Sequence record: NC_049823.1
DNA from: Escherichia phage herni
Direction: 5' to 3' (one strand)
DNA length: 50,971 bases
Shown here: positions 4,084-47,385 of the stretch, in pieces
How positions within the stretch are numbered: position 1 is the stretch's first letter
Layout: every line of letters begins with the position of its first letter
Made by a program: the position numbers and the translations under genes
The notes under the pieces: model-generated
Seen by the model: only the letters and a program-made list of their open reading frames with translations
What the model was told of the DNA's origin: nothing
The model's database searches: none

Positions 4084-4557
4084 TTAGCAATTAGTGCTTT
4101 CAGGTTTATACAGGAATCCGCCAGGTTCATAATCTGACATTCTTACCACTCGCAACATTTCACGCTTATCACATCTCTTTGTGAGCGGTTTGCCATTGGA
4201 ATCAAATCGCAGGTCTGGACGACAGAATGATGCGCGATAGCCTTGACATCCATATTTTTTGTAATCGTTATGCACCTTTTGAGCGCCAGCGGCTGAAATC
4301 ATACCACGAACGCGCCACTGATTTACAGTTTGCTGGCTAACGTTAAGACGTTTTGCCATTGCTGACACGCTTCCGTAATACTCAATAAGGATGTCAAGTC
4401 GCGCTTTTAGTCCGGCGCGCACTTCATCTTTTAAAACATAGTATCCCGTAGGGCGCTTGCGCTTCTTCTTGTCCTTGCCTCTTCGAGTTCCGTTATTGCC
4501 ATTAATTGTTCGCTTGTCAATCTTTCCTGTTGATACTGCGATTCGTTGCTCTTTCAT
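4084..4557 (-). CDS. helix-turn-helix DNA-binding protein
   Basis: ORF track; predicted HTH segment AKRLNVSQQTVNQWRVRGMIS; very basic N-terminus; GGAGA Shine-Dalgarno. Confidence 0.55.
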   Translation of the reverse strand: MKEQRIAVSTGKIDKRTINGNNGTRRGKDKKKRKRPTGYYVLKDEVRAGLKARLDILIEYYGSVSAMAKRLNVSQQTVNQWRVRGMISAAGAQKVHNDYKKYGCQGYRASFCRPDLRFDSNGKPLTKRCDKREMLRVVRMSDYEPGGFLYKPESTNC

Positions 4558-4570
4558 TATTCATTCTCCA

Positions 4571-4616
4571 ATAGCATTTTTTGTTAAACGATGATTTAAT
4601 GATTGTGTATTATACA
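4571..4616 (+). promoter_or_regulatory. conserved intergenic motif copy (ATAGCATTTTTTGTTAAA) plus ATTATA hexamer 22 nt downstream
   Basis: Matches the repeated motif; co-oriented with the helicase gene. Confidence 0.4.
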
Positions 4617-4646
4617 CACCAAATGGCATTACTCAAAGGTTTTAGA

Positions 4647-7092: not shown

Positions 7093-7132
7093 CACTTTTT
7101 GTTAAAACAGGCGCGAAGGATTGCGCCATAAT
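7087..7132 (+). promoter_or_regulatory. conserved intergenic motif AAATAGCACTTTTTGTTAAAAC, hairpin GGCGC-n8-GCGCC, CATAAT
   Basis: Motif contains the TAG stop of the upstream gene; ATAAT-like hexamer lies about 35 nt upstream of the Dam gene start. Confidence 0.45.
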
Positions 7133-7872: not shown

Positions 7873-8112
7873 ATGCAGAAAGAAAGAAGCGTTTATTTAA
7901 ATGAAACTGGAGAGTGGTTGTTATTTCGCGCTATGGTTTGCGAGGCGCTTGATAAAAACGAGTTCATAAAACCGCTATTAGGTTGTGATCCGTGGGAGTT
8001 TACAAGCGCGCTTGATATGAGCTTTGAGGAAACAAGAAAACTACCGCTTGAAAAATGGCATGAGCAGATCGGTAAAGACTTGCAAGAGTTTTACGAATCC
8101 GCGACAAAATAG
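7873..8112 (+). CDS. hypothetical protein (79 aa)
   Basis: ATG 7873 with GGAG Shine-Dalgarno; track ORF 7699 overlaps the Dam gene; stop embedded in the next motif copy. Confidence 0.5.
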   Translation: MQKERSVYLNETGEWLLFRAMVCEALDKNEFIKPLLGCDPWEFTSALDMSFEETRKLPLEKWHEQIGKDLQEFYESATK

Positions 8113-11311: not shown

Positions 11312-11355
11312 ATTCGTTCCGATGAAACAAATATACCCGATACGAGATCGGGAGT

Positions 11356-14143: not shown

Positions 14144-14199
14144 CGTTTATTTCTCCTTTCGTTTCGGTGAAGTGATTATGCCAGGCTTTTACACCTGGC

Positions 14200-14220
14200 T
14201 TTTAACAAAAAGTGCTATTT
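14200..14220 (-). promoter_or_regulatory. conserved intergenic motif (minus orientation) with hairpin GCCAGG-n7-CCTGGC and ATAAT
   Basis: TTTTAACAAAAAGTGCTATTT; contains the stop of the methyltransferase gene. Confidence 0.45.
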
Positions 14221-14934: not shown

Positions 14935-15159
14935 TCAAAACGGAAAGCATCGCGGACAGTTAGGATCAAAATTGCAGCCGCAATCATTAACAATCATCGT
15001 TGGATCTGCAAATGCAGCACCGCATTCATGTTCCATATCCATTTCACCCAACGCATCATCAAGTGTCCTGATCTTATATGCAACTTCAAGAGCAGCCTCT
15101 TTATTCAGCCCAGCATCTTCCGCTTTTTGCAGTCGCTCAAAAAATCCGTCCTGGCTCAT
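14935..15159 (-). CDS. small Cys-rich hypothetical protein (possible zinc binding)
   Basis: ORF track; C-terminal CGCNFDPNCPRC cluster. Confidence 0.45.
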   Translation of the reverse strand: MSQDGFFERLQKAEDAGLNKEAALEVAYKIRTLDDALGEMDMEHECGAAFADPTMIVNDCGCNFDPNCPRCFPF

Positions 15160-19043: not shown

Positions 19044-19085
19044 CACTTTTTGTTAAAATGCCAGGTGCGAATCCTGGCATAATAG
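19038..19085 (+). promoter_or_regulatory. conserved intergenic motif, hairpin GCCAGG-n7-CCTGGC, CATAAT
   Basis: Motif copy co-oriented with the gene at 19116. Confidence 0.45.
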
Positions 19086-27118: not shown

Positions 27119-28686
27119 TGCTGATTTGGGAAGACTTAACAGCGGCGCAAAAACGCGCCGTTAAGGAAATGAGCGAATATTCATTCGAAAAGATGATCCG
27201 CATTTGGTTTCAGTTATTGCAAGGTCAGAAATTCTTAGGAAACTGGCATTTCAGTTACCTATGTAGCGAAGTTGAAAAAATCATCAAAGGCGAGTCACAG
27301 AATGTAATTTTCAACATAACGCCAGGCAGTGGTAAAACAGAGATATTCTCGATCCACATGTCACCTTATGCGTCATTGAAAAGTAAGAAGGTGCGAAATC
27401 TTAATCTTTCGTTTAGTGATGGCCTTGTCCAGCAGAATAGCAACCGCATCAAAGAGATTATTGGTTCTCCAGAATGGCAGGAGCTATGGCCTGGAAAGCT
27501 GGCAAAGGCGAGCGCAAAGGATTTGATTGTAACCGATGGCGGCAAGGTTAAATTGCAAGTTAACTCGCGTTCTATCGGTGGTCAGGTTACTGGTCTGCGT
27601 GGCGGCTACATGGATGATGGATTTACTGGTATGCTGGTTCTTGACGATCCAGACAAGCCGGATGATATGCTTTCTAAGGTGAAGCGCGAAGCCGGACACA
27701 TGCGCCTAAAGAACACGGTGCGATCACGTCGAATGAAGGACACCACGCCAATCGTAATGGTCCAGCAACGGCTACACGTCAATGATTCAACATGGTTCAT
27801 GACAAACGGCGGCATGGGCGGCATCCAGTTTAAGGTGGTCAGTATTCCGGCGCTCGTTACTAAGGGATATCGCGAAACGCTTCCTGATTGGTTAAAGCCT
27901 GAGTTTGATCGCGATGTTTTGTCCAGTAAGCCAGTAATGATTGATGGTGTTGCTCATTATTCATTCTGGCCTGCTAAGGAAAGCGCGGAGGAATTACTTG
28001 CACTTCGAAATGCTGATCCGTACACGTTTGCTAGTCAGTATCAGCAACAGCCTGTTGCGCTTGGCGGCAACGTGTTTAAAACAGAGTGGTTTCAGTATTA
28101 CGGTAGCAGCGAGAAATGCACGCTACCAAAACCGGATCGCTTTGAATATACATTTATCACGGTTGATACCGCGCAGAAAACAGGGGAGCTTAACGACTAC
28201 TCCGTGATCTGTTATTGGGGGATGTATAAAGATCGCGTTTACTTCATTGATGGTGTTCGCGGAAAATGGGAAGCGCCAGACCTTGAGACTAATTTTGTTG
28301 CGTTCGTTAATCAGTGCTGGAAGCGCAATAAAGAATGCGGAACGTTGAGAAGGATTCATGTTGAAGATAAATCGTCTGGCACTGGCTTGATTCAGAGCGC
28401 AGCGAAAAAAATCATGATCAAGATCAATCCCGTTCAGCGCGATAAAGACAAGGTTACTCGTGCAATGGACGCAGCGCCAGTAATGCGCGCCGGACGTGTA
28501 GCACTTCCAGAATCCCACCCTATGCTGGCTGAGATACTGGCTGAAGTTGCGGCGTTTACATTCGATGATTCGCATCCTCATGATGATATTGTTGATAACA
28601 TCATTGATGCTGTTAACATTGAAATGAACATGGCAGATGATCCGGTAGGAAGAATGAAAAAATTGGCAGGTTTGCGGAACAAATAG
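27118..28686 (+). CDS. terL: terminase large subunit
   Basis: 522 aa; acidic VLDDPDKPDD ATPase-type motif; size and position before the portal gene. Confidence 0.8.
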   Translation: MLIWEDLTAAQKRAVKEMSEYSFEKMIRIWFQLLQGQKFLGNWHFSYLCSEVEKIIKGESQNVIFNITPGSGKTEIFSIHMSPYASLKSKKVRNLNLSFSDGLVQQNSNRIKEIIGSPEWQELWPGKLAKASAKDLIVTDGGKVKLQVNSRSIGGQVTGLRGGYMDDGFTGMLVLDDPDKPDDMLSKVKREAGHMRLKNTVRSRRMKDTTPIVMVQQRLHVNDSTWFMTNGGMGGIQFKVVSIPALVTKGYRETLPDWLKPEFDRDVLSSKPVMIDGVAHYSFWPAKESAEELLALRNADPYTFASQYQQQPVALGGNVFKTEWFQYYGSSEKCTLPKPDRFEYTFITVDTAQKTGELNDYSVICYWGMYKDRVYFIDGVRGKWEAPDLETNFVAFVNQCWKRNKECGTLRRIHVEDKSSGTGLIQSAAKKIMIKINPVQRDKDKVTRAMDAAPVMRAGRVALPESHPMLAEILAEVAAFTFDDSHPHDDIVDNIIDAVNIEMNMADDPVGRMKKLAGLRNK

Positions 28687-28700
28687 CACGAATCGACAAA
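28681..28700 (+). promoter_or_regulatory. conserved intergenic motif variant AAATAGCACGAATCGACAAA (no hairpin, terminator follows)
   Basis: Motif copy containing the TAG stop of terL. Confidence 0.35.
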
Positions 28701-28715
28701 CCAATATATAATCAA

Positions 28716-28741
28716 AGGCTGGTAAATCCAGCCTTTTTTAT
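28716..28741 (+). terminator. rho-independent terminator
   Basis: AGGCTGG-taaat-CCAGCCT followed by TTTTTTATT. Confidence 0.6.
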
Positions 28742-28754
28742 TGGAGGAAAGATA

Positions 28755-30035
28755 ATGAGTAAATCACGAATCGTTAAGGCTGACGGCTATAACGAGATCT
28801 TTAAAGGCGAGAATTGCAAATCGCGAGTAGAGCAACCATTCTACATGCAATCAATGCCATACAAGACACTTGCTGACTTTTACGAAAAAGATGGCCTGGC
28901 AAAAAGGATTATTGACGTAGTACCAGAGGAAATGGTTTCCCCTGGCTTTACTGTTGACGGCGTGGCAGACGAGGCGGCATTCCGTTCTTTGTGGGATGAG
29001 AAGCGATTGAATGCAAAAATCATTGATGCGCTTTGCTGGTCGCGTTTGTTTGGCGGATCTGCAATCATTGCTCTTGTTCAGGATGGGCGAGCGCTCAAAT
29101 CACCTGTAAAGCCTGGAGCTATTCTGGAAGATGTGCGCGTTTATGATCGTTATCAGATTCGCGTTGAAGCGCGCGAAACTAATCCCCGCAAGGTTCGCTA
29201 TGGTGAGCCAGTGCTTTACACTGTAACGCCAGGCGGAGACTTGCCGGAATACCAGGTACACTACACGCGAGTTTGCATTATCGATGGTGAGCGGATACCT
29301 AACGCAAAACGACGCAGCAATGATGGATGGGGTGAGTCAGTTCTTAACAAGCGACTTATTGAGGCTATTGTTGATTATAACTATTGTGAAACATTAGCGA
29401 CGCAATTATTGCGAAGAAAACAACAGGCAGTATGGAAAGTTAAAGGTCTTGCGGACTTGTGTGATGATGAGGAAGGTGTTAGCGCGGCACGCCTGAGACT
29501 TGCGCAGGTTGACGACGAGGGCGGCGTAGGCAAGTCCATTGGTATTGATGCTGAGGATGAGGAATATGATGTTCTTAACTCTGACATTAGCGGCGTTGAT
29601 TCTTTTCTGGAAAAGAAAATGGATCGCATAGTTTCCCTTTCAGGTATTCATGAAATCATCCTGAAAAATAAAAACGTTGGCGGCGTTAGCGCAAGCCAAA
29701 ACACGGCGCTTGAAACATTCTATAAGCTGATTGAAAGAAAACGCGTTGAGGATTACAAGCCTATCCTTGAATTTCTATTGCCGTTCATCATTAGTGAACA
29801 GGAGTGGAGCATTGAGTTTTCACCTTTGAGCGTACCTAGCGATAAAGATCAGGCTGAAATTCTGAATAAGAATATCGACTCAATCAGCAAGGCTATTGAT
29901 GGTCAGTTCCTTGATGTTGAAGAGGCGCGCGACACGTTGCGAGCAATCGCCCCAAGCGTTAAACTAAAGGACACTAATAAAATCAAGCTGCCGGAGCCAA
30001 CTGAGCCGGAGCCAGGCACACAGGGGAATGAGTAA
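28755..30035 (+). CDS. portal protein
   Basis: 426 aa directly downstream of the terminase; GGAGGAAA Shine-Dalgarno; acidic C-terminus. Confidence 0.75.
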   Translation: MSKSRIVKADGYNEIFKGENCKSRVEQPFYMQSMPYKTLADFYEKDGLAKRIIDVVPEEMVSPGFTVDGVADEAAFRSLWDEKRLNAKIIDALCWSRLFGGSAIIALVQDGRALKSPVKPGAILEDVRVYDRYQIRVEARETNPRKVRYGEPVLYTVTPGGDLPEYQVHYTRVCIIDGERIPNAKRRSNDGWGESVLNKRLIEAIVDYNYCETLATQLLRRKQQAVWKVKGLADLCDDEEGVSAARLRLAQVDDEGGVGKSIGIDAEDEEYDVLNSDISGVDSFLEKKMDRIVSLSGIHEIILKNKNVGGVSASQNTALETFYKLIERKRVEDYKPILEFLLPFIISEQEWSIEFSPLSVPSDKDQAEILNKNIDSISKAIDGQFLDVEEARDTLRAIAPSVKLKDTNKIKLPEPTEPEPGTQGNE

Positions 30036-31927: not shown

Positions 31928-32440
31928 ATGGCTACAATTGGAGCAAGTTATTTTGCTGTAATGTCTCGTGCGTTACCTGGTCAGGTTTCTGACACTTCAG
32001 CTTATAATATTGATGGCGCTTGTGTTCTTGAGAATGCGGAAGGCAACCAGAACAAAAACATTTTTGTTGGTGTTGCAATCCAGCATGGCGGCGTTGATGC
32101 TATGGGCAATAAGCTAATTAAGCCGATGGCGGCAAGCGGCAAGGCTTACGGTGTTGCAATTCGATCCCACTTCCAGACGACTTCTGCTGACGGTCGAATG
32201 ATTTATGAATCTGGCGGCGGAATCAACGTAATGACTGAAGGGCGTGTTTGGATGTTGGCTAAAGACGCCACCGCGCCAGCGTTCGGCACTACAATCAAAC
32301 TGTCTGAGGATGGTCAGGTTGATACCGCGTCTGGCACTATCGAAACCAACTGGATCGCGACTGGTGATTTCACCGAGTTTCAAGGCTTGAAGCTGGTAGA
32401 GGTTCAGGTGCAAAAAGTTCCGGCAGTTTCAGCAGGTTAA
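31928..32440 (+). CDS. head-associated structural protein (paralogue 1)
   Basis: 170 aa; shares a pattern with the gene at 32486 (G..VW.L......G....DG....G....W..TG); AAGGAGA Shine-Dalgarno. Confidence 0.45.
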   Translation: MATIGASYFAVMSRALPGQVSDTSAYNIDGACVLENAEGNQNKNIFVGVAIQHGGVDAMGNKLIKPMAASGKAYGVAIRSHFQTTSADGRMIYESGGGINVMTEGRVWMLAKDATAPAFGTTIKLSEDGQVDTASGTIETNWIATGDFTEFQGLKLVEVQVQKVPAVSAG

Positions 32441-32447
32441 TAAATAT

Positions 32448-32471
32448 GGCGCTCACTGAGCGCCTTTTTTA
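32448..32471 (+). terminator. rho-independent terminator
   Basis: GGCGCT-cactg-AGCGCC followed by TTTTTTAT. Confidence 0.65.
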
Positions 32472-32485
32472 TATTTGGGGTTATC

Positions 32486-32920
32486 ATGAGTGATTATTCA
32501 GTCATTGTTGGCGCTGAGTCGCCAGGGTGCATGGTCGATTCTTCAATAATGGTGATTAACGGATCTTTCGTGTGCGGAGATGAATTTATTGCGCCAGGTA
32601 AGATTGTTCGACTATCACATATAACAAATGGATACAAAATAGCCAGTATTAATGGGGATCTTGTTATTGGCGTGGCAGTAAGGCCGCTGGACTCGTGCAT
32701 ATATGAGGATGGTGATCCAGTTAGTGTTGTTAGTCGAGGTATTGTGTGGTGCTTAACTTCTGAGAGCGAAGCGCCAGAATATGGAGATAAAGTATTTGTA
32801 ACGCAAGATGGAGATGCGGCATACAGTGAAGGCGACTTACTGAGCGGTTGGATCTTTACTGGCGAACATGTAAAGATTGATCATGATTCATATATTGTCG
32901 GGGTAAGCATTGACTCATAA
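32486..32920 (+). CDS. head-associated structural protein (paralogue 2)
   Basis: 144 aa; similarity to the gene at 31928. Confidence 0.45.
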   Translation: MSDYSVIVGAESPGCMVDSSIMVINGSFVCGDEFIAPGKIVRLSHITNGYKIASINGDLVIGVAVRPLDSCIYEDGDPVSVVSRGIVWCLTSESEAPEYGDKVFVTQDGDAAYSEGDLLSGWIFTGEHVKIDHDSYIVGVSIDS

Positions 32921-32939
32921 CACAAAATTATGTTGCACG

Positions 32940-32957
32940 TTTAACAAAAAATGCTAT
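32940..32957 (-). promoter_or_regulatory. conserved intergenic motif in inverted orientation relative to the downstream capsid gene
   Basis: TTTAACAAAAAATGCTAT on the plus strand. Confidence 0.35.
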
Positions 32958-33003
32958 CATTGGTCCGTTACATACTAACGACCTTTATATATGGAGGAAG
33001 AAA

Positions 33004-33978
33004 ATGGAAAAAGAAAAATTTGATCAGCTAGATGCGGATATTGTTTCTAGCTATCTGGCTACTCGCGGCGTTAAAGGTGATGCGTCCGATATGGGTATCT
33101 GGACGGCGCAAGAGCTTCACAAGATCCGCTCAACTGCTTACGAGAAAGAGTATCCGGCAGGTTCTGCGCTTCGTGTGTTCCCTGTAACTAATGAGCTTTC
33201 TGATACTGATAAAACTTTTGAATACCAGATGTTTGATAAGGTTGGTTACGCAAAAATTATTGCTGATTACACCGATGACCTGCCGACCGTTGACGCGCTG
33301 ATGTCCAGCGAATTTGGTAAAGTGTTCCGCTTGGGTAACGCGTTCTTGATCTCCATTGACGAAATCAAGGCTGGTCAGCGCACTGGCAAGAGCCTTTCCA
33401 CTCGCAAGGCAAACGCAGCGCAAAACGCTCATGATCAGGAAGTTAACCGCCTGGTGTTTAAGGGTTCAAAGCCGCATAAGATTCTTTCAGTGTTTGAACA
33501 CCCTAATCTGACAAAGATCGTGTCAACTGGCTGGTTAAGTGCTGATGAAAACACTAAGTTCCCGCAGGCAGCATCTGATGAACTGGAAAAGGCTATTGAA
33601 ACCATTCAGACCATCACCAATGGTCAGCACCGCGCAACCAATATCCTGATTCCGCCGTCTATGCGCAAGGTTCTTTCCGTTCGAATGGAAAACACCACTG
33701 AAAGTTATCTGGAATACTTCCAGAAACAAAACAGCGGAATCACCATCGACTCAATCGCAGAGCTTGAGGATATTGATGGCACTGGAACGAAAGGTTGTCT
33801 GGTATATGAGAAAGACCCAATGAATATGTCTATCGAAATTCCAGAAGCATTTAACATGCTTCCGGCGCAACCAAAAGATCTGCATTTCAAAGTTCCGTGC
33901 ACTTCAAAATGTACTGGCCTGACGATTTACCGTCCGTTTACGCTAGTGCTTATTACTGGCTTGAAAAAATCAAGTTAA
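33004..33978 (+). CDS. major capsid protein
   Basis: 324 aa; strong GGAGGAAG Shine-Dalgarno; flanked by strong terminators; position in the head module. Confidence 0.65.
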   Translation: MEKEKFDQLDADIVSSYLATRGVKGDASDMGIWTAQELHKIRSTAYEKEYPAGSALRVFPVTNELSDTDKTFEYQMFDKVGYAKIIADYTDDLPTVDALMSSEFGKVFRLGNAFLISIDEIKAGQRTGKSLSTRKANAAQNAHDQEVNRLVFKGSKPHKILSVFEHPNLTKIVSTGWLSADENTKFPQAASDELEKAIETIQTITNGQHRATNILIPPSMRKVLSVRMENTTESYLEYFQKQNSGITIDSIAELEDIDGTGTKGCLVYEKDPMNMSIEIPEAFNMLPAQPKDLHFKVPCTSKCTGLTIYRPFTLVLITGLKKSS

Positions 33979-33990
33979 TCGTATAACATT

Positions 33991-34020
33991 GGGGAATCCT
34001 TAACTGGATTCCCTTTTTTA
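33991..34020 (+). terminator. rho-independent terminator
   Basis: GGGGAATCC-ttaact-GGATTCCC followed by TTTTTTATT. Confidence 0.65.
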
Positions 34021-34034
34021 TTGGAGGTTATGAA

Positions 34035-34307
34035 ATGGCTAAAGAAAAAACTGTAACGCTAAAGGTTTCCGGCGTGTGTCTTATCATTGTTGATGGTGAG
34101 CATTATCATCCAGGCAAAGAGTTTGACGTAGAAGAATCAAAATTGAAAACAAGCGCGTTTGAATATCTAATTGCAAAAGGCGATCTGGAGGTTAAAGATA
34201 ACTCCGCATTGAACGAAGAAATCAAACAGAGCGCAGCAAGCAAACGTAAAAAAGACCCGCGAGAGGGCAAGAGCAAAGCCGAACTTGAAGACGGCGGCAT
34301 CTATTAA
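34035..34307 (+). CDS. hypothetical structural protein (90 aa)
   Basis: ORF track; GGAGG Shine-Dalgarno. Confidence 0.5.
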
Positions 34308-34313
34308 TAAAGA

Positions 34314-34336
34314 GGGCGCTTATAGCGCCCTTTGTC
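34314..34336 (+). terminator. putative terminator
   Basis: GGGCGCT-tat-AGCGCCC followed by TTTGT. Confidence 0.4.
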
Positions 34337-34354
34337 ATATCTGGAGGAAACACA

Positions 34355-34771
34355 ATGGTTGATGAATTTTTCACTGACGCAGAAATCACGCAGCAAATCG
34401 TGAAATTAGCGCCACCGATGAAGCAGATTGATCCAGATTTAATGGTGGCATGGATTGAGCTTGCAAAGGAATTTGTTTGCAAGAAGCGGTTTAAAGAATC
34501 ATATCCAAAAGCGGTTGCTCTTTATACGTTGCACCTTATGACGCTTGACGGAGCTATGAAGCAAGAAGGGGAAAGCGTAGAGAGTTACTCAAGGCGCGTG
34601 GCGTCATTTTCCCTGACTGGTGAATTTAGCCAGACTTTTGATCGAGTGTCAGGCGACTCTGACGGAAAAGAGATTAGACAAACTCCCTGGGGGAAAATGT
34701 ACGAAACGCTAAATCGTAAGAAAGGCGGTGGATTTGGCCTTGTGACTGGATTTCGGAGGAGTTGCAAATGA
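34355..34771 (+). CDS. head-tail connector or adaptor protein (putative)
   Basis: 138 aa; positional. Confidence 0.4.
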
Positions 34772-35139
34772 ACTATAACGAGATCGCAAGAATGGCAACC
34801 GAAGGAATTAACTTCTTTAGTGATGGCAAAGGTGAGTTTAAGTGCATAACGCAGCGTGGAAGCGTTGAAATCATCGGAGGCGAAGAAGTAGAAAAGCCAG
34901 AGATTAGTGTAATGATTAAGGGTTTAATTCGATCCCCAAAAGTTCGAGAGGTTGACGGCGAGACAATACGAGTAACCGATAAGTTGGGAGTTTTTAACAA
35001 TAAAGTTGAAATTAAGAACGGGTATCATATTGATGTTGATGGTGAATTATATGTTGTAGTTGAAGCAAGACCAATCAGACAAACCAATGTCACTGTTGCT
35101 TATCGGCCTATTTTGAGAAGGATTTCTGTACATGGCTAA
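34768..35139 (+). CDS. head-tail joining protein (putative)
   Basis: Start at MNYNEIAR with GGAGGAG Shine-Dalgarno; positional. Confidence 0.4.
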
Positions 35140-35575
35140 AAACTACACGATAAGGGAATTTCACGGCAACATTGATGCGTGGATAAACGCCGTTGATAGT
35201 GGACTAAAAGATTGCGTGGAGTTATTCGCCGAAAAAGTACACACAGATTTGGTTAAGCGTTCTCCGGTAGATACTGGTCGTTACCGTGGAAACTGGCAGG
35301 TAACAGCAAATAAGCCGCCATTGTATGCGCTTAACCAGTACGATAAGCACGGCGACAAAACGATCGCTGAAGGTAAGCGAGCTATATACGCAATATTGAG
35401 AGGTGGCGGAGCGGTAAGGGCTATTTATTTTTCAAATATGCTTATTTACGCTAACGCGCTTGAATACGGTCATTCAAAACAAGCGCCAGCGGGTGTGCTT
35501 GGTATTGTTGCCGTTAAGTTGCGTTCATATATGGCTGAAGCAATAAAAGAGTCGAGGGCAAAAAATGCACTATGA
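35132..35575 (+). CDS. HK97 gp10-like tail or neck component
   Basis: SPVDTGRYRGNW motif typical of the HK97 gp10 family. Confidence 0.55.
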   Translation: MAKNYTIREFHGNIDAWINAVDSGLKDCVELFAEKVHTDLVKRSPVDTGRYRGNWQVTANKPPLYALNQYDKHGDKTIAEGKRAIYAILRGGGAVRAIYFSNMLIYANALEYGHSKQAPAGVLGIVAVKLRSYMAEAIKESRAKNAL

Positions 35576-35963
35576 ATTAATGCTATCGGCGCGTAAGGCG
35601 CTGGCGACTGAATACGAGAGCAGATTCACGATCGCTTATGAAAACGTAGAGTTTACGCCACCTGGTGACGGTTCGCCGTGGTTGAAGTTTGACTATGCCG
35701 AAGTTGACACAGAATACTTGTCATTGGATCGAAAATGCGTTTCATATATCGGAATGATTCAGGTTGGCATTGTGTTTCCACCAGGTTACGGAACTGACAG
35801 GCCGCGCGTTCTAGCTAAAGAGATTGCGCAATTCTTTTACGATGGTAAAATGCTGGAGCATGGTTATATATATGAGGGTGCAAGAGTTCACAAGCCGCTC
35901 AAGAGTGAAAGCGGTTGGCTTCTCCCTATAAGGTTTTATGTTCGAATTGAAACAAAGGAGTAA
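35565..35963 (+). CDS. tail terminator or completion protein (putative)
   Basis: 132 aa; positional. Confidence 0.4.
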   Translation: MHYELMLSARKALATEYESRFTIAYENVEFTPPGDGSPWLKFDYAEVDTEYLSLDRKCVSYIGMIQVGIVFPPGYGTDRPRVLAKEIAQFFYDGKMLEHGYIYEGARVHKPLKSESGWLLPIRFYVRIETKE

Positions 35964-35968
35964 AAATT

Positions 35969-36631
35969 ATGCATTTACCAAATGGATCGCAAATTTTCGT
36001 TGAGAGCAATCGCGGAAGCGCTATTGAGGCAACGGCAGTATCAAACGCTAAAGATCCTGTATTCACCGTTGCATCTGGCGGAACTGCGTACAAGAAAGGT
36101 GATTATGTTATCATCACTGCGTCTTCTTGGGGTAAGCTGATTGATCGTGTTATGCGTGTAAAGACTAACGGTGAAGAAACAAGCGTAACTCTTGAGGGTG
36201 TTGATACTACCGATCAGAACGTGTTCCCGACTGGCGGCACTGCATCTTTTGCTAAGATTGATGCATGGACAGAGATCCCTTGCGTTCAGGATTTGTCGCA
36301 GGACGGCGGCGAACAGCAATACTATACTTATCAGTGTTTGGCAGACGATCAGGAACAGCAGTTACCTACATATAAGAGCGCTGTTTCTCTTACTTACACT
36401 TTTGCGCACGAATACGATAACGCGATCTATCCGCTATTGCGTGCAGCAGACGAATCCGGCGAAGTGACAGCGCTTCGCATGTATGTACCGAAAGCGAAAG
36501 AGATGCGTTGCTGGGCTGGTGTCCTTTCGTTTAACGAAATCCCACAGACCACAGTTAACGAAATGGAAACTGTTTCCCTGTCTGTATCCCTGAAAGGTCG
36601 ATTCACCTTCCTACCTTCTCAAGTAGCATAA
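35969..36631 (+). CDS. major tail protein
   Basis: 220 aa immediately upstream of the chaperone and tape measure genes; strong terminator downstream. Confidence 0.6.
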   Translation: MHLPNGSQIFVESNRGSAIEATAVSNAKDPVFTVASGGTAYKKGDYVIITASSWGKLIDRVMRVKTNGEETSVTLEGVDTTDQNVFPTGGTASFAKIDAWTEIPCVQDLSQDGGEQQYYTYQCLADDQEQQLPTYKSAVSLTYTFAHEYDNAIYPLLRAADESGEVTALRMYVPKAKEMRCWAGVLSFNEIPQTTVNEMETVSLSVSLKGRFTFLPSQVA

Positions 36632-36636
36632 TAACA

Positions 36637-36660
36637 AGGGGCGTTGCGCCCCTTTTTTTG
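36637..36660 (+). terminator. rho-independent terminator
   Basis: GGGGCG-tt-GCGCCCC followed by TTTTTTTGTT. Confidence 0.65.
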
Positions 36661-36698
36661 TTACTGTACAATCATGCTACACGATTCATAATCAATTC

Positions 36699-36717
36699 TT
36701 TTAACAAAAAGTGCTAT
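36699..36717 (-). promoter_or_regulatory. conserved intergenic motif in inverted orientation, directly upstream of the tail chaperone gene
   Basis: TTTTAACAAAAAGTGCTAT on the plus strand, ending 13 nt before the ATG. Confidence 0.35.
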
Positions 36718-36730
36718 CAAGGAGAAAGAA

Positions 36731-37048
36731 ATGTCAAAAATGAAATTGACGATTGGGCCGCTTCCTGACTTTAAATTACCAGTGAAATTTGCAATGCCTA
36801 ACGGAGAAGATCAAACAATTATCTTCACAGTTCGCCACCGCAAAACAAGTGAGATTCACGATCGCTACACTTCCGACACTCCGATGAGCGATGTTGAAAT
36901 GATCACCTTCCTTGCTTCCGGTTGGAATCTTGATGATGAATTTAACGAAGAAAATATTAAACAGCTTCTTGATTACTACCCAGCAACAGCAATCGGATTA
37001 ACTAGCGCATACATGAAAGCGCTTGCGGGGCAGCGAGTAAAAAACTAA
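36731..37048 (+). CDS. tail assembly chaperone (lambda G-like, zero-frame product)
   Basis: 105 aa between the major tail and tape measure genes; ends at a slippery heptamer. Confidence 0.65.
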   Translation: MSKMKLTIGPLPDFKLPVKFAMPNGEDQTIIFTVRHRKTSEIHDRYTSDTPMSDVEMITFLASGWNLDDEFNEENIKQLLDYYPATAIGLTSAYMKALAGQRVKN

Positions 37049-37082
37049 AAAGGGCGGTTTACCTGTTTTATCAGAAACCGCC
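37039..37082 (+). other. -1 programmed ribosomal frameshift site: heptamer A AAA AAC, 7-nt spacer, 8-bp stem hairpin
   Basis: Heptamer at 37039-37045 in the zero frame immediately before the TAA stop; hairpin GGCGGTTT-n14-AAACCGCC at 37053-37082. Confidence 0.6.
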
Positions 37083-37359
37083 GACAGATGCAGAGCTTGA
37101 GGCTGTTGGCCTTACAAGGGCAGACTATGAAGGAGAAGATCCGCCAGAGGTTATATTTGATGAAAGCATGATGCAATCATGGGATATATTTTGCGCAATG
37201 CAAACACAATGGAGATGTTCAGGCGGTGGCGCTTACGGATTTGATTATAATGTCTTGCCTATGCTTTTTGAGATTTACAAGGTTGAGGATCGCGAGATGG
37301 CGCTAAACGACTTGCGAATCATGGAGCAAAAAGCACTTGAAATGATGCATTCAAAATAA
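37042..37359 (+). CDS. -1 frame extension of the tail assembly chaperone (lambda GT-like fusion C-terminus)
   Basis: The -1 frame is open from 37006 to 37359 with no independent Shine-Dalgarno start; position matches the G/GT arrangement. Confidence 0.55.
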   Translation, partial: KLKRAVYLFYQKPPTDAELEAVGLTRADYEGEDPPEVIFDESMMQSWDIFCAMQTQWRCSGGGAYGFDYNVLPMLFEIYKVEDREMALNDLRIMEQKALEMMHSK

Positions 37360-37381
37360 GCGCCTGCGGGCGCTTTTTTAT
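37359..37381 (+). terminator. rho-independent terminator
   Basis: AGCGCC-tgcg-GGCGCT followed by TTTTTTATT. Confidence 0.6.
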
Positions 37382-37398
37382 TACCTGGAGGATTAATA

Positions 37399-40071
37399 AT
37401 GTCAGAACAATACGCAGGATTGACGCTTGGGGTTGATGTATCTCAACTCAACAATGCTGTAAAATCTTTGCAGCAATTCAAAAAGGCAAACGACGACGCA
37501 AAGGGGAGCGTTGAGAGCTTTGTTGATTCAGAGGTTGTTGCAAGGCAAAGAGCCAAACAATTGGCTGAGGAATTGGCGAAACAGAAACAGGAATTTAAAG
37601 CAATTCAGTCGGCAATAGATCCGACAGCAAGCAAAATGGATAAGTTGCGCCAGGCAGCAACACAGCTTGATGCGCTTTGGAAAAAAGGAATTGTGCCGGA
37701 TGATACATTCTTTGAGTTAGGATCAATTCTTGAGACGCAGCAAAACAAACTGATCGCAACTAAAAAGGCGCTAACTGAAGAAGGTCGCGCGGCGCTTGAG
37801 GAAGCAAAAAACAAGGCAAGGGCAGAGGCTGAGGCAAGAAAGTTCATTGCGGCATTGCAGGCGCAAGCTGACGCAGCGGAAAAAACAAAATCAGAGCTTG
37901 TCGAAATGAGAGCCGCACAACTTGGAGTCAGTGCAGAAGCTGCGCCATTTATTGCAAAAATGAAGGAGCAGGAAAAACAAGCCTCAAAACTTGGCGTTTC
38001 TATGGGGCAGTACAAGCAAGCAATGGCGCAATTGCCAATGCAGATCACTGACGTTGTTACTTCTCTTGCTTCAGGTATGCCAGTATGGATGATCGCAATC
38101 CAGCAAGGGGGGCAAATCAAGGACTCATTCGGCGGTGTTGCTAATACGTTTAAAGCGCTAATGACATTTGTCACGCCTTTAAGTGTAGGAATGACGGCGC
38201 TGACTGGTGCTCTTGGTTATGCTGCATATAATGCATACAAAGCAAATGCACAATTGAAGGAGATCACAAAAACCGTTCAGGAGGCAACAGGTCTTTCAGG
38301 TGAGTTTGCAGAGCGGATCGCAACTGGAATCCAGGCGCTATCTGACAAGACAGGTGAGAGCGCCGATAATCTGGCAAAGGCATACATAAGCACTAAGGAC
38401 GGAGCAAACGAGGCCATACAAAAACTCGTCGATGTTGGGTTTACCTATGACGAAGCAAAGGCAAAAGTAAACGAATACAAAAACGCATCAAGTTTTGTAA
38501 GTCTTAACAATGAAATTGCTGATCACAAAAACAAAGTTCTTGAGCTTGGCGATTCATGGTATGCGGTCTTAAAAGCAAAACGTGATTATGCTTCACCGTC
38601 AGGCGGGCTGTTGGGGAAAGAGCTTGGTTATGTGAATCCAATGCTGCAATTTGCGAAGAACACCTATGAGGATATAGGAAAGATCGTAAAAGATGCGAAT
38701 AAGGATATGGCGGAACGAGCAGCACGCATCGACAGAGAAAACCTTTCCTTAAACAGAGTTCGAGCGGCGCAAGAGGCTTTAAACAAAGCCATAGAGGATC
38801 AGAAGAACGTAGCAAGGACAGCAGACGAAGAGTTGAAAAAACGAGCGGCTGAGAACGTGGAGTTCAGGCGAAAAGAGCTTGAAGAGGCGAAGAAGGCGCA
38901 GCAGCAAAAGGAGAAAGTTGGTGGAGTTGTAAAAGCACCAACAGAGCAGCTTGATAAGGAACTATATGTTCTCAAGGCGCAACTTGAAACGCTGAAAGAG
39001 CACAGAACTGTAAATGATGTTATTTCACGCCAGAGGCAATCTTTGTGGAGCATTGAAAAGCAGATCCAGATCCTGGAGGAAGCGCAAAGCAAACGTAAGC
39101 TGACAAAAGCGGAACAGGCGTTACTAAACGAGCAAAAAGCAGTTATTGCTATGGCAAAAGAAAAGGCCGAGATAGGCGATCAGATTGTTTTGCAACAGAG
39201 AAAGAATAAGCAATACCAGGACGGGCTTAAATTCATTCAGCAAACATCAGATGCTATTGACGCTATGAACTTGCGACAGTCTGGAGCTACAGATCTGCAA
39301 ATCCAGCGAGAGCTTGAGTTGAAGAAGTTGCGAACTGATTATGTTGCTGGTGGCGGTAGTATCGACGATGAAATTTATCAGCAGATGGAAGCAAAGCTGA
39401 AAGAGTATTACGCCACTGAGGATCAGCTTCGAAATAACTGGATTGCAGGAGCAAAAAACGCTTGGGAGGTTTACGGACAAGATGCAATGGATATGTACGG
39501 CAACGTGCAAGATATTGCAAGCGAGGCGCTCAATGGTCTAACCAATCAAATGGCTACATTCCTTGCAACCGGTAAGGCAAACTTTAAGAGCTTCGCAACG
39601 TCAATCATCCAAATGATTATTCAGATGATCACAAAGATGGTTATCTTTAATGCCATATCTGGTGCGATTGGAGGTGACACTTGGACGATTGGAAGCCTTC
39701 TTAAAAATGTTGGATTTGCAACAGGTGGATACACTGGCGACGGCGGGAAGTATGAGCCAGCAGGTGTTGTCCATAAAGGCGAGTTTGTCATGACGAAGGA
39801 GGCCACGAAACGGATCGGAGTTGGAAATCTTTACAAAATGATGCGCGGTTATGCAAATGGCGGCGTTGTTGGCGGCACTTCATACACTGGCGGCGGAGTT
39901 TCATCTGGAGCAACAAATCTTAATATTGGCGGGATCAGCGTTGATATTAACAACGGAAGCGATCCGAAAGGGTTGGAGACTGGCGTAAAAATGATTTTCA
40001 CTGATATGATTAAGCGTTCCTGTACGCAGGGTGGGGAAGTTTACGAATTTGTTATGTCTAAGCGGGGGTGA
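37399..40071 (+). CDS. tail tape measure protein
   Basis: 890 aa, long Ala/Lys/Glu/Gln-rich coiled-coil, hydrophobic segments, Gly-rich C-terminus; position after the chaperone. Confidence 0.85.
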
Positions 40072-42563: not shown

Positions 42564-42590
42564 AGTCGCGCGTTGCGCGGCTTTTTTTTT
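42564..42590 (+). terminator. rho-independent terminator
   Basis: GC-rich hairpin followed by nine T. Confidence 0.6.
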
Positions 42591-42635
42591 GCCCGTATAA
42601 TTCAACAAATCAAATAGCACAAAAGGTGAAAAAGC

Positions 42636-45600
42636 ATGGCTGAAAATATGATAACGGGCAGTAAGGGTGGATCATCAAAACCTTATGTTCCGAAAGAGAT
42701 GGAAGATAACCTGATCTCAATCAACAAAATCAAAATACTTCTTGCCGTTTCCGATGGTGAGTGCGATCCAAGTTTTACACTTCGCGATCTGTATCTTGAT
42801 GATGTTCCGGTAATTGCAGACGACGGAACTGTTAACTACCAGGGTGTGAAAGCTGAATTTCGACCTGGAACGCAGACGCAAGATTACATCCAGGGATTTA
42901 CTGACACATCAAGCGAAGTGACGCTGGCGCGTGACATTACTACATCAAATCCTTATGTAATTTCTGTAACCAACAAAACATTATCGGCTATCAGAATCAA
43001 AATGCTAATGCCAACAGGCATTAAGCAAGAGGATAACGGCGATCTTGTCGGCGTTAAGGTTACTTATGCTGTTGATATGGCTGTTGACGGAGACTCTTAC
43101 AAAGAAGTATTGCTAGACACCATCGAAGGTAAAACGCGTTCCGGTTACGACAGAAGCCGAAGGATTGACCTTCCGGCATTTAATGATCGCGTATTGCTTA
43201 GGGTTAGAAGGGTTACGGCAGACAGCGCATCCTCTCGCGTTACTGATCTGATTAAGCTACAAAGTTACGCTGAGGTTATTGATGCAAAATTCCGTTATCC
43301 TCTGACTGGTCTTGTATACGTTGAACTTGACAGTGAGTTGTTCCCTAACCAGATCCCTAACATTTCAATCAAGAAGAAATGGAAGTTAATTAATGTTCCG
43401 AGCAATTACGATCCAGTAATGCGAGAGTATCACGGTTCATGGGATGGTACTTTCAAGAAAGCGTGGTCGAACAATCCGGCGTGGGTTCTTTATGACATTA
43501 TCACAAACCAGCGATACGGATTAGATCAGCGAGAACTTGGCGTGCAGGTTGACAAATGGAGTCTTTACGAAGCGGCGCAATACTGCGATCAGAAAGTGCC
43601 GGATGGAAAAGGCGGTACAGAGCCGCGTTATCTATGCGACGTTGTGATTCAAAGCCAGATTGAGGCTTATCAGCTTATTCGTGATATTTGCTCAATCTTC
43701 CGAGGCATGAGCTTTTGGAATGGCGAGAGCTTGTCAATCGTCATTGATAAGCCGCGCGATCCGTCGTACATCTTCACCAATGACAACGTTGTTGATGGTG
43801 ATTTTCAGTACACAACAGCAAGCGAAAAGAGCATGTACACGCAGTGCAACGTGACGTTCGACGACGAACAAAACATGTACCAACAGGACGTAGAGGGCGT
43901 ATTCGACACCGAGGCAGCATTGCGATTTGGATACAATCCTACAAGCATAACAGCGATTGGATGTACACGCAGGAGTGAGGCTAATCGGCGCGGTCGATGG
44001 ATACTAAAAACTAACTTGCGCAGCACTACGGTAAACTTTGCTACTGGACTGGAAGGCATGATCCCATCAATAGGTGATGTGATTGCTATTGCTGACAACT
44101 TTCACAGCAGCAACCTTAAGTTAAACCTATCAGGGCGCGTGATGGAAGTTTCAGGCTTGCAGGTGTTCGCTCCGTTTAAGATTGACGCGCGACCAGGTGA
44201 TTTCATTATCATCAACAAGCCAGACGGGAAGCCAGTTAAGCGCACAATCTCAAAAGTAAGCGGTGACGGAAAAACCATTGAGCTAAATATTGGGTTTGGA
44301 TTTGAGGTTAAACCTGACACGGTTTTTGCAATCGACCGCACTGATATTGCATTGCAGCAATACGTTGTAACGAGTATCGGCAAAGGTGATGATGATGATG
44401 AATTTACATACTCCATCACGGCTGTTGAATATGACCCGAACAAATACGACGAGATTGATTATGGAGTAAACATTGACGACAGGCCAACTTCAATTGTCCA
44501 GCCTGACACAATGGCAGCGCCTGAAAATGTGCAAATATCCTCCTACTCGCGAATTGTCCAGGGTGCAAGCGTTGAAACAATGGTTGTGTCGTGGGATAAA
44601 GTACCTTACGCATCGCTGTATGAAATGCAGTGGCGAAAAGGTGATGGCAACTGGCTGAATACACCACAGACTGCAAACAAAGAAATTGAGGTTGAAGGTA
44701 TTTATTCAGGAAACTACCAGGTAAGGGTTAGATCTGTTTCTGCTTCAGGTTCGACGTCGCCGTGGTCCAGAATTGTAACAGCTTCACTGACTGGTAAGGT
44801 AGGAGAGCCAGGCGCGCCAGTTAACTTAACTGCATCCGACAATGAGGTGTTTGGCATTCGTGTTAAGTGGGGGATGCCAGAAGGCAGCGGAGACACGGCA
44901 TACATTGAGCTTCATCAGTCGCCGGATGGAACGGCTGAAAACTCAAGCCTGTTAACTCTGATCCCATATCCACAATATGAATACTGGCACGGTACGCTTC
45001 CGGCTGGTCATGTTGTATGGTATAGAATCCGCAGTGTTGACAGAATCGGCAACGTTTCCGGATGGACTGATTTTGTTAGAGGCATGGCTTCAGATGATGT
45101 GGAGGCTGTTTTAGGCAATATTCTTGATAAGATTTTTGATACCGAAGCAGGGAAGGATCTGAAAGAGAATGCCATTGATAGCGCAAACAAAATCAAGGAT
45201 CAGGCGCAAAGCATCATTCAAAACGCATTGGCGAATGATGCAGACGTTAGGATTATGAGGAAGGAAAACGGAAAACGCAAAGCCGAATTCAGGCAATCAA
45301 TACAGTTGATCGCAGATGAAACTGAGGCGCGCGTTACCGCAATGACGCAACTCAAGGCTGAATTTGACGAGGAAATAACTAGCGAAGTAACGAGGCTTGA
45401 TCAGGCAATTGCAACAGAATCGGAAACGCGAGCAACAGCCATTGAGGAATTGAAATCACAGATTGGAGATGATATTCAGGGGCAGTTAACGAGAGTTGAG
45501 GAGGCGATTGCAAGCGAAACAGAGGCGCGCGTTTCTGCTGACACAGCATTAACAGCGAAGTTTGGAGATGTTGAATCAGCGCTGACGGAAAAACTTGATT

Positions 45601-47082: not shown

Positions 47083-47310
47083 TTACATACTGCAATCAGC
47101 GTTTTTAAAGTTATCAATACTTACCCACTGAAAATTAAACGGATAGCCAGCCTTAACAAGAGTGCGGTCGCCAACTCGTTTTACTCCAAAAATAGCAACT
47201 GAATACTGCATACCGCTATTTTCATAAATAGCCGTGCATTCACGCTTAGGCATATTTGCGCAACCAGTCAGGGTTGCGGCTGCAATCAAAACGGCGATTA
47301 ATTTTTTCAT
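47083..47310 (-). CDS. small outer-membrane lipoprotein, possibly Cor-like superinfection exclusion protein
   Basis: 75 aa; signal peptide with lipobox LTGC; size and position next to tail genes as for Cor-type proteins; functional assignment is inference. Confidence 0.45.
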   Translation of the reverse strand: MKKLIAVLIAAATLTGCANMPKRECTAIYENSGMQYSVAIFGVKRVGDRTLVKAGYPFNFQWVSIDNFKNADCSM

Positions 47311-47366: not shown

Positions 47367-47385
47367 TTTAGCAAAAAGTGCTATT
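47367..47385 (-). promoter_or_regulatory. conserved intergenic motif (minus orientation) upstream of the lipoprotein gene
   Basis: TTTAGCAAAAAGTGCTATT. Confidence 0.4.

Follow-up and report, generated by a model that had tools for sequence, protein, structure and literature searches.

Repeats of the kind considered here have been described in silico before. The 2024 re-annotation of phage TLS reported a 21-nt direct repeat, aaATAGCACnnnTTGnTAAAA, in 21 mostly intergenic copies that point the way the genes are transcribed and lie about 76 nt before start codons; the repeat was also noted in T1, Rtp and Rogue1, and its function was left open, with stoperator-like, enhancer-binding and upstream element (UP)-like roles being raised (PMC11447400). 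We consider the counterpart of this repeat in Escherichia phage herni (sequence record NC_049823.1), and in particular two copies in its late structural region that are reversed relative to the gene that follows, one before the major capsid gene and one before the tape measure (tail) chaperone gene. The window, meaning the whole stretch of 50,971 nucleotides that was analysed, is a T1-like siphovirus of the Drexlerviridae (subfamily Tempevirinae, Hanrivervirus), and its late region shares 96–97% identity with Hanrivervirus phages that include vB_EcoS_G29-2, pSf-1 and JakobBernoulli/Bas07, the last being about 96% identical over 32400-37400. T1 is a classical coliphage and the Drexlerviridae are among the enterobacterial phages isolated most often; how they order early and late transcription with the host RNA polymerase alone is essentially undescribed. 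The motif string was found in no paper in our literature search, and the RNA sequencing in PMC13250531 concerns a T5-like phage.

One of the two reversed copies is already in the literature, as an uncommented table row: DR7 of TLS, listed on the negative strand (15044..15024) just before 'terminator' T35 in the plus-strand late region (PMC11447400). In our set the TLS capsid gene starts 43 nt after DR7 (locus L022), and DR7 is the homologue of the capsid copy in the window. The rule of direction and ~76-nt distance given for TLS is followed by neither of the late copies, and DR7 departs from it likewise. TLS P57 and DR11 correspond to the promoter of a regulator gene, considered below, and to its motif copy; a tail chaperone copy is absent from TLS, unlike the window. 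The TLS paper makes no comment on a dyad core, on a fixed 20-nt spacing to a -10, on a sigma70 promoter around DR7 or on a candidate factor (PMC11447400). New here is how the reversed copies are placed with respect to promoters, and their link to the regulator gene.

For comparison 77 loci were gathered around homologues of the capsid gene (from 99% down to 53% protein identity), together with the genomes of T1 and the Webervirus Skenny; sequence anatomy and conservation could be read directly. Both late copies are very probably conserved functional cis-elements, and they are not equivalent, the capsid copy lying within a predicted sense promoter and the chaperone copy in a predicted leftward promoter. 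Our preferred reading, for which we see about an even chance, is that the late copies are placed so that a bound factor would interfere with sigma70 late promoters.

The repeat family and its reversed late copies

The pattern TTTAACAAAAARTGCTATCA, allowing up to three mismatches, has 15 matches in the window against 0.05 expected from shuffled sequence. A looser search brings the clear copies to 18, and a weight matrix adds five degenerate ones, for a total of about 23. The first late copy, TTTAACAAAAAATGCTAT, occupies 32940..32957 on the plus strand and ends 46 nt before the capsid ATG; the second, TTTAACAAAAAGTGCTAT, occupies 36700..36717 (plus strand), 2 nt before the ribosome binding site AGGAG, and ends 13 nt before the chaperone ATG at 36731. 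Extended slightly, the plus-strand sequences are TTTAACAAAAAATGCTATCA (32940-32959) and TTTAACAAAAAGTGCTATCA (36700-36719), and on the reverse strand they read GATAGCATTTTTTGTTAAAC and GATAGCACTTTTTGTTAAAA, matching the TLS repeat consensus. Their weight-matrix scores (26.1 and 32.6) fall inside the range of early copies. An earlier sequence-only reading had placed these two copies correctly, including the 13-nt distance to the chaperone ATG and the reversal relative to the plus-strand late genes, its start at 36699 merely counting one extra T.

That reading also held that early copies are always co-oriented with their genes, which is true of 19 of the 21 non-late copies, while the copy at 4570-4588 serves both directions. 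In those 19 a gene lies in the direction in which the motif reads AATAGCAC..TTAAA; a TAnnnT or CATAAT hexamer stands 19–20 nt downstream, and leader, ribosome binding site and ATG come next. None of these 19 early-type promoters in the window has a -35 hexamer at the proper distance from the -10. The core of the motif, judged from 65 copies in three genomes, is a dyad, TAGCA-N5-TG(C/T)TA, the flanks of which are asymmetric; the half-site positions carry 1.4–2.0 bits, the degenerate C/T position excepted, and the half-sites are inverted and about 10 bp apart centre to centre, as in operators of the Cro/CI type. In the early promoters the dyad centre lies at about -42 relative to the predicted start, which, with no -35 present, is the position expected of a class II activator. 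A dyad core of this form suits a helix-turn-helix dimer and would account for one site working in either orientation. The suggestion that the reversed copies act as orientation-independent binding sites is thus largely borne out, by the dyad core and by the location of both copies in or beside conserved sigma70 promoters.

The mycobacteriophage L5 stoperators, which the TLS authors suggested as a parallel, resemble the present family in having many copies of a short site in both intergenic and transcribed positions, with orientation relative to transcription being of consequence. They differ in being asymmetric 13-bp sites through which a lysogenic repressor silences the prophage, whereas the present phage is virulent, with a dyad core and with most copies resembling activator sites.

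A reading that involves the host alone should also be considered, in which the motif is read by RNA polymerase itself, as a UP-like element or displaced -35, or by a host DNA-bending protein, so that the late copies would be mere spacer sequence and a constitutive divergent promoter. The motif is A/T-rich and contains a TTG, the UP-like role is among those raised by the TLS authors (PMC11447400), and the motif is unchanged among phages that infect Escherichia, Shigella, Salmonella, Citrobacter and Klebsiella. We nevertheless consider this explanation unlikely: the motif has invariant G/C positions and a 5+5 dyad core typical of a dimeric helix-turn-helix operator, its TTG is 22 nt from the -10 and so beyond the reach of sigma region 4, and conservation of the capsid promoter's spacer goes far past what sigma70 needs. 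The autoregulatory layout at the single annotated regulator gene speaks against it as well, and matches to the textbook consensus sequences of IHF and sigma54 fail on spacing. For sigma54 (TGGCAC-N5-TTGC) the motif offers TAGCAC-N3-TTG(C/T), with AG for GG and 2 bp too few; likeness to the IHF, Fis and CRP sites and to the T4 MotA box, again by textbook consensus, fails in every case on spacing or on key bases.

Two further ideas about the late copies were dropped. The 'CA'/'TATCA' ending that they share has meaning at the capsid copy alone, as the part that completes the -10 TATCAT, and it varies among relatives at the chaperone copy. The subtype of the motif centre (TTT or GAA), considered as something that might co-vary between late and early copies, is uninformative, early copies of T1 and Skenny mixing both.

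The capsid copy within a predicted sense promoter

The reversed capsid copy is found in the same place and orientation in nearly all 77 loci and in T1 and Skenny, being degenerate in Webervirus. Around it lies a predicted promoter reading rightward, toward the capsid gene: a -35, TTGCAC (32933..32938), whose TTG is invariant and which in relatives becomes TTGACG, TTGACC or TTGAAC, then a 16-nt interval that is constant among relatives, and an extended -10, TGc TATCAT (32952..32960), whose TG, TA and final T are invariant. The hexamer is TATCAT, TATATT, TATTAT or TATTCT in the relatives. An alignment of 25 diverse upstream regions, including T1 and Webervirus, gave as invariant columns an A-tract resembling a UP element (A31-A34 of the alignment, 32924..32927), TTG at 32933-35, several bases of the motif, TG at 32952-53, TAT at 32955-57 and the final T at 32960. 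The arrangement has the features of a sigma70 promoter with an extended -10 (TTG, a spacer of 16–18 nt, TGn and TAnnnT), and we consider a sense sigma70 promoter here likely.

The motif itself provides the spacer and the TGnTAT of this promoter, a feature that the sequence-only reading had overlooked. Position 6 of the hexamer is T in every capsid copy, as against 3 of 16 early copies read in the same way, and the capsid spacer matches the early motif at 17–18 of 18 positions. Since the spacer is more conserved than sigma70 would require and matches the early motif, it would also be a site for whatever reads that motif elsewhere. The dyad centre falls at about -18 of the capsid promoter.

Read leftward, the capsid copy has no usable -10 in the window or its relatives. 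At a distance of 20 nt stands TATGAG, no relative has T as the sixth base of this hexamer, and its conserved TA belongs to the stop codon of the upstream gene. A leftward promoter at this copy was therefore rejected, every candidate hexamer lacking the position-6 T, and with it the part of the earlier proposal that had antisense transcription starting here.

Directly after the promoter a hairpin with a T-run (32962..32983) stands before the capsid ribosome binding site, with compensatory changes in five of its eight pairs; its TLS equivalent is annotated as terminator T35 (PMC11447400). The predicted capsid start, 6–8 nt past the -10 at about 32966-32968, falls in the hairpin's 5' arm, and a transcript begun there would fail to form the hairpin: the folding energy is -6.6 kcal/mol for the intact hairpin and -2.5 to -0.1 kcal/mol when the RNA begins at the predicted start. 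We infer that the hairpin stops read-through from upstream but lets pass transcripts that start at the capsid promoter.

This arrangement also bears on the possibility that the factor acts positively at late promoters, either by binding the spacer opposite the polymerase in the manner of lambda CII, or by loading onto polymerase between -35 and -10 and letting it pass the many late terminators, in the manner of lambda Q at its element in PR'. The capsid copy does sit between -35 and -10 with a conserved hairpin and T-run directly after, the late region is dense in terminator-like sites (17 against 4.5 expected in 5 kb), and positive control would remove the problem of timing that a repression model brings with it. 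The likeness to the lambda Q site is one of position, with the motif between the -35 and -10 of a late promoter and a hairpin following; here, however, the hairpin is weak and contains the predicted start. Its loop, where a Q-like mechanism requires a -10-like pause element, varies among relatives, as do the initial transcribed bases, and no Q-like antiterminator is annotated in T1, Skenny or Bas07, Q homology itself not having been searched. A 16-nt spacer with an extended -10 requires no activator, and positive control leaves unexplained the chaperone and regulator copies, which lie downstream of their promoters. On balance we judge positive control improbable.

The capsid copy is flanked on the left by a hypothetical gene (32486-32920) and on the right by the major capsid gene (33004-33978).

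The chaperone copy and its predicted leftward promoter

At the chaperone copy the motif can be read leftward as a promoter of the early type. A minus-strand -10, TAGCAT (36674..36679), lies exactly 20 nt from the motif, with a predicted start at about 36667, and thus shares the early pattern of a TAnnnT hexamer 19–20 nt past the TTAAA end. In all 19 distinct motif-bearing relatives the gap from the TTTAAC end of the motif leftward to a minus-strand TAnnnT is exactly 20 nt, and a TAnnnT stands at the equivalent place in none of 29 relatives that lack the motif. The hexamers seen are TAGCAT, TAGATT, TATCAT, TAGAGT, TAGGAT, TAGGCT, TATATT, TACAGT, TAAGAT and TACGAT. Across 15 distinct sequences positions 1, 2 and 6 are conserved at 100% and the two middle ones at 40–53%, and in the same set the majority fraction is 0.99 within the motif against 0.64 in the adjacent 20-nt gap. 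The leftward geometry, as far as it can be predicted from these alignments, is that of the phage's own motif-dependent promoter type, kept by selection, and a leftward promoter at this copy is likely.

A sense promoter is predicted on the same stretch of DNA. The gene before it, encoding the major tail protein, is followed by a two-way terminator hairpin (36636..36654), the TTG in the loop of which supplies the predicted -35, TTGCGC (36644-36649, plus strand); in all relatives inspected the TTG stands 16–17 nt before the -10. The -10 itself, TACAAT (36667..36672, plus strand), is conserved with or without the motif; in relatives it is of the TAnnnT type, CATAAT or, in one locus (L038), TTTAAT, position 2 being A and position 6 T throughout. 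We read the loop TTG together with the conserved hexamer as a sense promoter of modest strength that would serve the chaperone and tape measure genes. An alternative, TGTACA-16-CATAAT (36665-36692), had been flagged by a promoter scan and was set aside, its -10 not being kept in relatives whereas TACAAT at 36667-36672 is.

The leftward -10 is 1 bp from the sense -10, with predicted starts at about 36667 leftward and 36679 rightward. With the -10s so close the two would be divergent, interlocked promoters that could not both be occupied, the open complex of one shutting out that of the other. The motif would occupy about +22 to +39 of the predicted chaperone leader, its dyad centre at about +30. 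For this copy alone the idea of antisense transcription is supported by comparative geometry, the 20-nt gap and TAnnnT being present in 19 of 19 relatives. The RNA going leftward would have no antisense relation to the chaperone mRNA, since the predicted starts diverge; within about 15 nt it would reach the terminator that follows the major tail protein gene (36654-36636), carrying no reading frame.

It may be asked whether an RNA product is what matters, either as a leftward small RNA antisense to the 3' end or terminator of the major tail protein mRNA, or with the motif as an RNA element beside the ribosome binding site. The conserved leftward geometry would fit this, as would the abutting of motif and ribosome binding site at the chaperone and regulator genes. 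The predicted leftward RNA also folds into a strong hairpin (-16.2 kcal/mol, z -3.55), but this hairpin is the terminator read backwards. The leftward RNA would be just ~35–45 nt long, with neither a conserved leader box nor a reading frame; leftward of both late copies we found no CATCGAAACGA-like leader box, ribosome binding site or gene. No significant structure is predicted in the chaperone leader (z 0.17), motif and ribosome binding site are 0 to 12 nt apart depending on the relative, and no Rfam match was found in the whole window. An RNA role furthermore cannot unite the copies, that at the capsid gene being upstream of its own predicted start. We regard it as very unlikely.

The chaperone copy is present in Hanrivervirus, in several other genera and in T1. 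Among genera the module varies as a 43–45 nt indel, so that at least one gain or loss must have occurred, which might be taken to favour the idea that the reversed copies are recombination scars, that is, promoter cassettes inverted or inserted by recombination between repeats and without present function. The comparison contradicts this. Position and orientation of both copies are kept across genera, T1 included, and from Tempevirinae to Tunavirinae, the motif is near-invariant while its flanks diverge, and the functional -10 positions are invariant. The orientation in relatives, which the sequence-only reading had proposed to check, is conserved, and we rejected its scar hypothesis, neutral remnants being extremely improbable.

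Next to this copy lie the major tail protein gene (35969-36631) on the left and, on the right, the tape measure chaperone gene (36731-37048, plus strand).

A candidate regulator and its proposed circuit

An arrangement like that at the chaperone copy, again overlooked by the earlier reading, precedes a gene encoding a 157-amino-acid protein (4084..4557, minus strand) with a Cro-like helix-turn-helix at residues 54-91. Its leader has the order TTTAACAAAAAATGCTAT, TGGAG and ATG at 4557, which is the layout of the chaperone copy, the motif lying at 4570..4588 on the minus strand. Upstream is a canonical sigma70 promoter (4609..4636, minus strand; TTGAGT at 4636-4631, 16 nt, TATAAT at 4614-4609) with 10 of 12 consensus matches; canonical promoters are few in these genomes. 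Its leftward transcript would cross the motif before the ribosome binding site and ATG, with the dyad centre at about +23. Read rightward, the same motif is the early-type element of the helicase promoter, the -10 of which, TATTAT (4608-4613, plus strand), begins 19 nt past it and overlaps the regulator -10 by 5 bp. The two promoters share a near-palindromic -10, TGTGTATAATACACA (within 4557-4650), and each has its upstream element within the leader of the other; starts are predicted at about 4602 (minus strand) for the regulator and about 4620 (plus strand) for the helicase. This switch region is conserved across the family, the regulator layout being found in T1, Skenny, TLS (P57 and DR11) and 44 further loci.

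The protein matches PHROG 2856, 'transcriptional regulator' (E 3e-78), gives Pfam matches to YdaS and P22 Cro slightly under threshold, and matches the Cro structures 5w8y (E 2e-5) and 3bd1 (E 3e-4) in the PDB; it is the homologue of T1 gp23. Between Hanrivervirus and Webervirus the regulator is 64–70% identical whereas the capsid protein is just 53–55% identical, and this better conservation fits an operator sequence that has not changed. An interlocked layout before its own gene suggests autoregulation, and we take the protein as the candidate motif-binding factor, with an evenly divided judgement on whether it is the right one.

Under our preferred reading, that the late copies let a bound factor interfere with sigma70 late promoters, the Cro-like protein would be expressed from its own canonical promoter and would bind the dyad. 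Where the dyad takes the place of a -35, at the helicase promoter and about 18 other early and middle promoters, the protein would recruit polymerase. At the capsid promoter, with the dyad inside the 16-nt spacer, bound protein would occlude RNA polymerase, and at the chaperone and regulator genes it would divert polymerase to the interlocked opposite promoter; the chaperone site, at about +22 to +39, could in addition serve as a roadblock to elongation. The net effect would be that capsid and chaperone transcription is restrained while the protein is abundant and that the regulator represses its own promoter. The negative sign of regulation at the late promoters we infer with some hesitation, rating it a little short of an even chance.

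Several points weigh against this reading, and timing is the main weakness among them: a model with an early repressor leaves the later release of the late promoters unexplained, and also why they should be silent before the regulator accumulates. All start sites were predicted from the position of the -10, and our literature search found no start-site, RNA-sequencing or binding data for any of the Drexlerviridae. The -35s TTGCAC and TTGCGC each match the consensus at 3 of 6 positions, so the sense promoters are weak in this respect, and a promoter scan of the window listed neither the predicted capsid nor the predicted chaperone sense promoter. The Webervirus capsid copy is degenerate (14 of 18 positions), and the chaperone copy is dispensable, being absent from TLS-like phages and Webervirus, where the leader is 43–45 nt shorter. 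As to the factor, Bas07 (L125) has at 47093-47284 a second small annotated 'putative DNA-binding protein' (63 amino acids, bas07_0077) that is an alternative candidate, and a host factor as binder of the motif is possible.

The control logic, in which a single operator-binding protein activates or represses according to where its site lies, is itself textbook and has several parallels. At the lambda OR operator, where CI acts on PRM and PR, and in divergent systems of the LysR or MerR type, one dyad likewise binds a helix-turn-helix dimer; from a site near -42 one promoter is switched on and the divergent promoter overlapping it is repressed, and the regulator gene is one of the divergent genes. 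The present phage differs in being virulent with no lysogeny module, in having -10s that overlap or abut with predicted starts only 12–18 bp apart, in reusing the operator at about 20 promoters, and in that the 'activated' partner at the chaperone gene is geneless. In phi29 the protein p4 similarly activates or represses according to the position of its site, and the Mor and C proteins of Mu act on activator-dependent promoters that have a -10, no -35 and a site near -43. Those proteins are unrelated to the present candidate and their late promoters are the activated class, whereas here the early and middle genes have the activator geometry and the late genes the occluding one. Lambda CII at paQ and pRE, and the pR/pL pair of phage 186, also show an activator-dependent promoter that opposes a lytic or late unit and lowers its expression; in those pairs, however, the promoters converge, transcripts overlap and polymerases collide. 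As the predicted starts here diverge, an effect would have to arise from both promoters competing for the same stretch of DNA, with neither collision nor RNA pairing involved.

A larger claim, which we think doubtful, is that one Cro-like protein and one dyad in three geometries run the whole temporal programme of T1-family phages. If so, the site at about -42 would activate some 20 early and middle promoters that have no -35, the site in the capsid spacer would occlude, and the geneless decoy would shut the chaperone and regulator promoters. Replication would then multiply operators faster than the autoregulated pool of protein, releasing the late genes; such a titration timer would need no late activator. 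Apart from this larger claim, the circuit proposed above is of value in closing a gap in what is described for the family and in providing promoter parts to phage engineers, and not as a new principle. The conserved capsid promoter around one reversed copy, the interlocked promoter pair at the other and the like design before the single annotated regulator gene turn a vague repeat into a specific, testable circuit with predicted starts and a named candidate protein.

Other members of the motif family occur in further arrangements. Two degenerate copies in the late module are co-oriented, one (28682) preceding the portal gene and the other (42613) the J-like tail gene. The former, AATAGCACGAATCGACAAA (region 28682-28755), lies just 6–7 nt upstream of a perfect TATAAT that is followed by a hairpin and T-run, a ribosome binding site and the portal ATG, a third geometry of the motif; relatives bear a clean AATAGCACGAATTGCTAAA in its place. 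At 42565-42640 the J-like tail tip gene's promoter seems laid out like that of the chaperone (terminator loop TTGCGC, 17 nt, TATAAT), and the degenerate co-oriented copy in its leader, AATAGCACAAAAGGTGAAA (the counterpart of TLS DR8), doubles as ribosome binding site. In about half of the early promoters a GC-rich hairpin occupies the fixed 20-nt gap between motif and -10 (for example 7107-7126, 8088-8107, 11336-11355, 14181-14200 and 19058-19077), looking like the terminator of the upstream unit nested in the next promoter; the TLS pairs DR12/T62 and DR10/T57 are alike. Early leaders also contain a conserved box, CATCGA(A/C)AACGA(A/G), 5–7 nt past the -10 and right before the GAGGA ribosome binding site, downstream for instance of the copies at 8108, 11356, 14201, 16251, 16757, 17633 and 19039 and likewise in T1 and Skenny; this box might serve as a translation signal or as an initial transcribed sequence.

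T1 (L079) has a reversed copy in the minus-strand leader of its tail fibre gene (34881-34919: CTTAGCAATTCGTGCTAT, 7 nt, AAGGAG, ATG); in the window the primase and tail fibre genes abut and no such copy is present there. Within the late region of the window an early-type copy at 47367-47385 drives a small minus-strand gene (47083-47310) that sits where T1 has cor (superinfection exclusion). Between 32300 and 37500 terminator-like hairpins follow nearly every late gene, 17 being found where 4.5 were expected, and this crowding agrees with the 'transcripton' layout proposed for T1.

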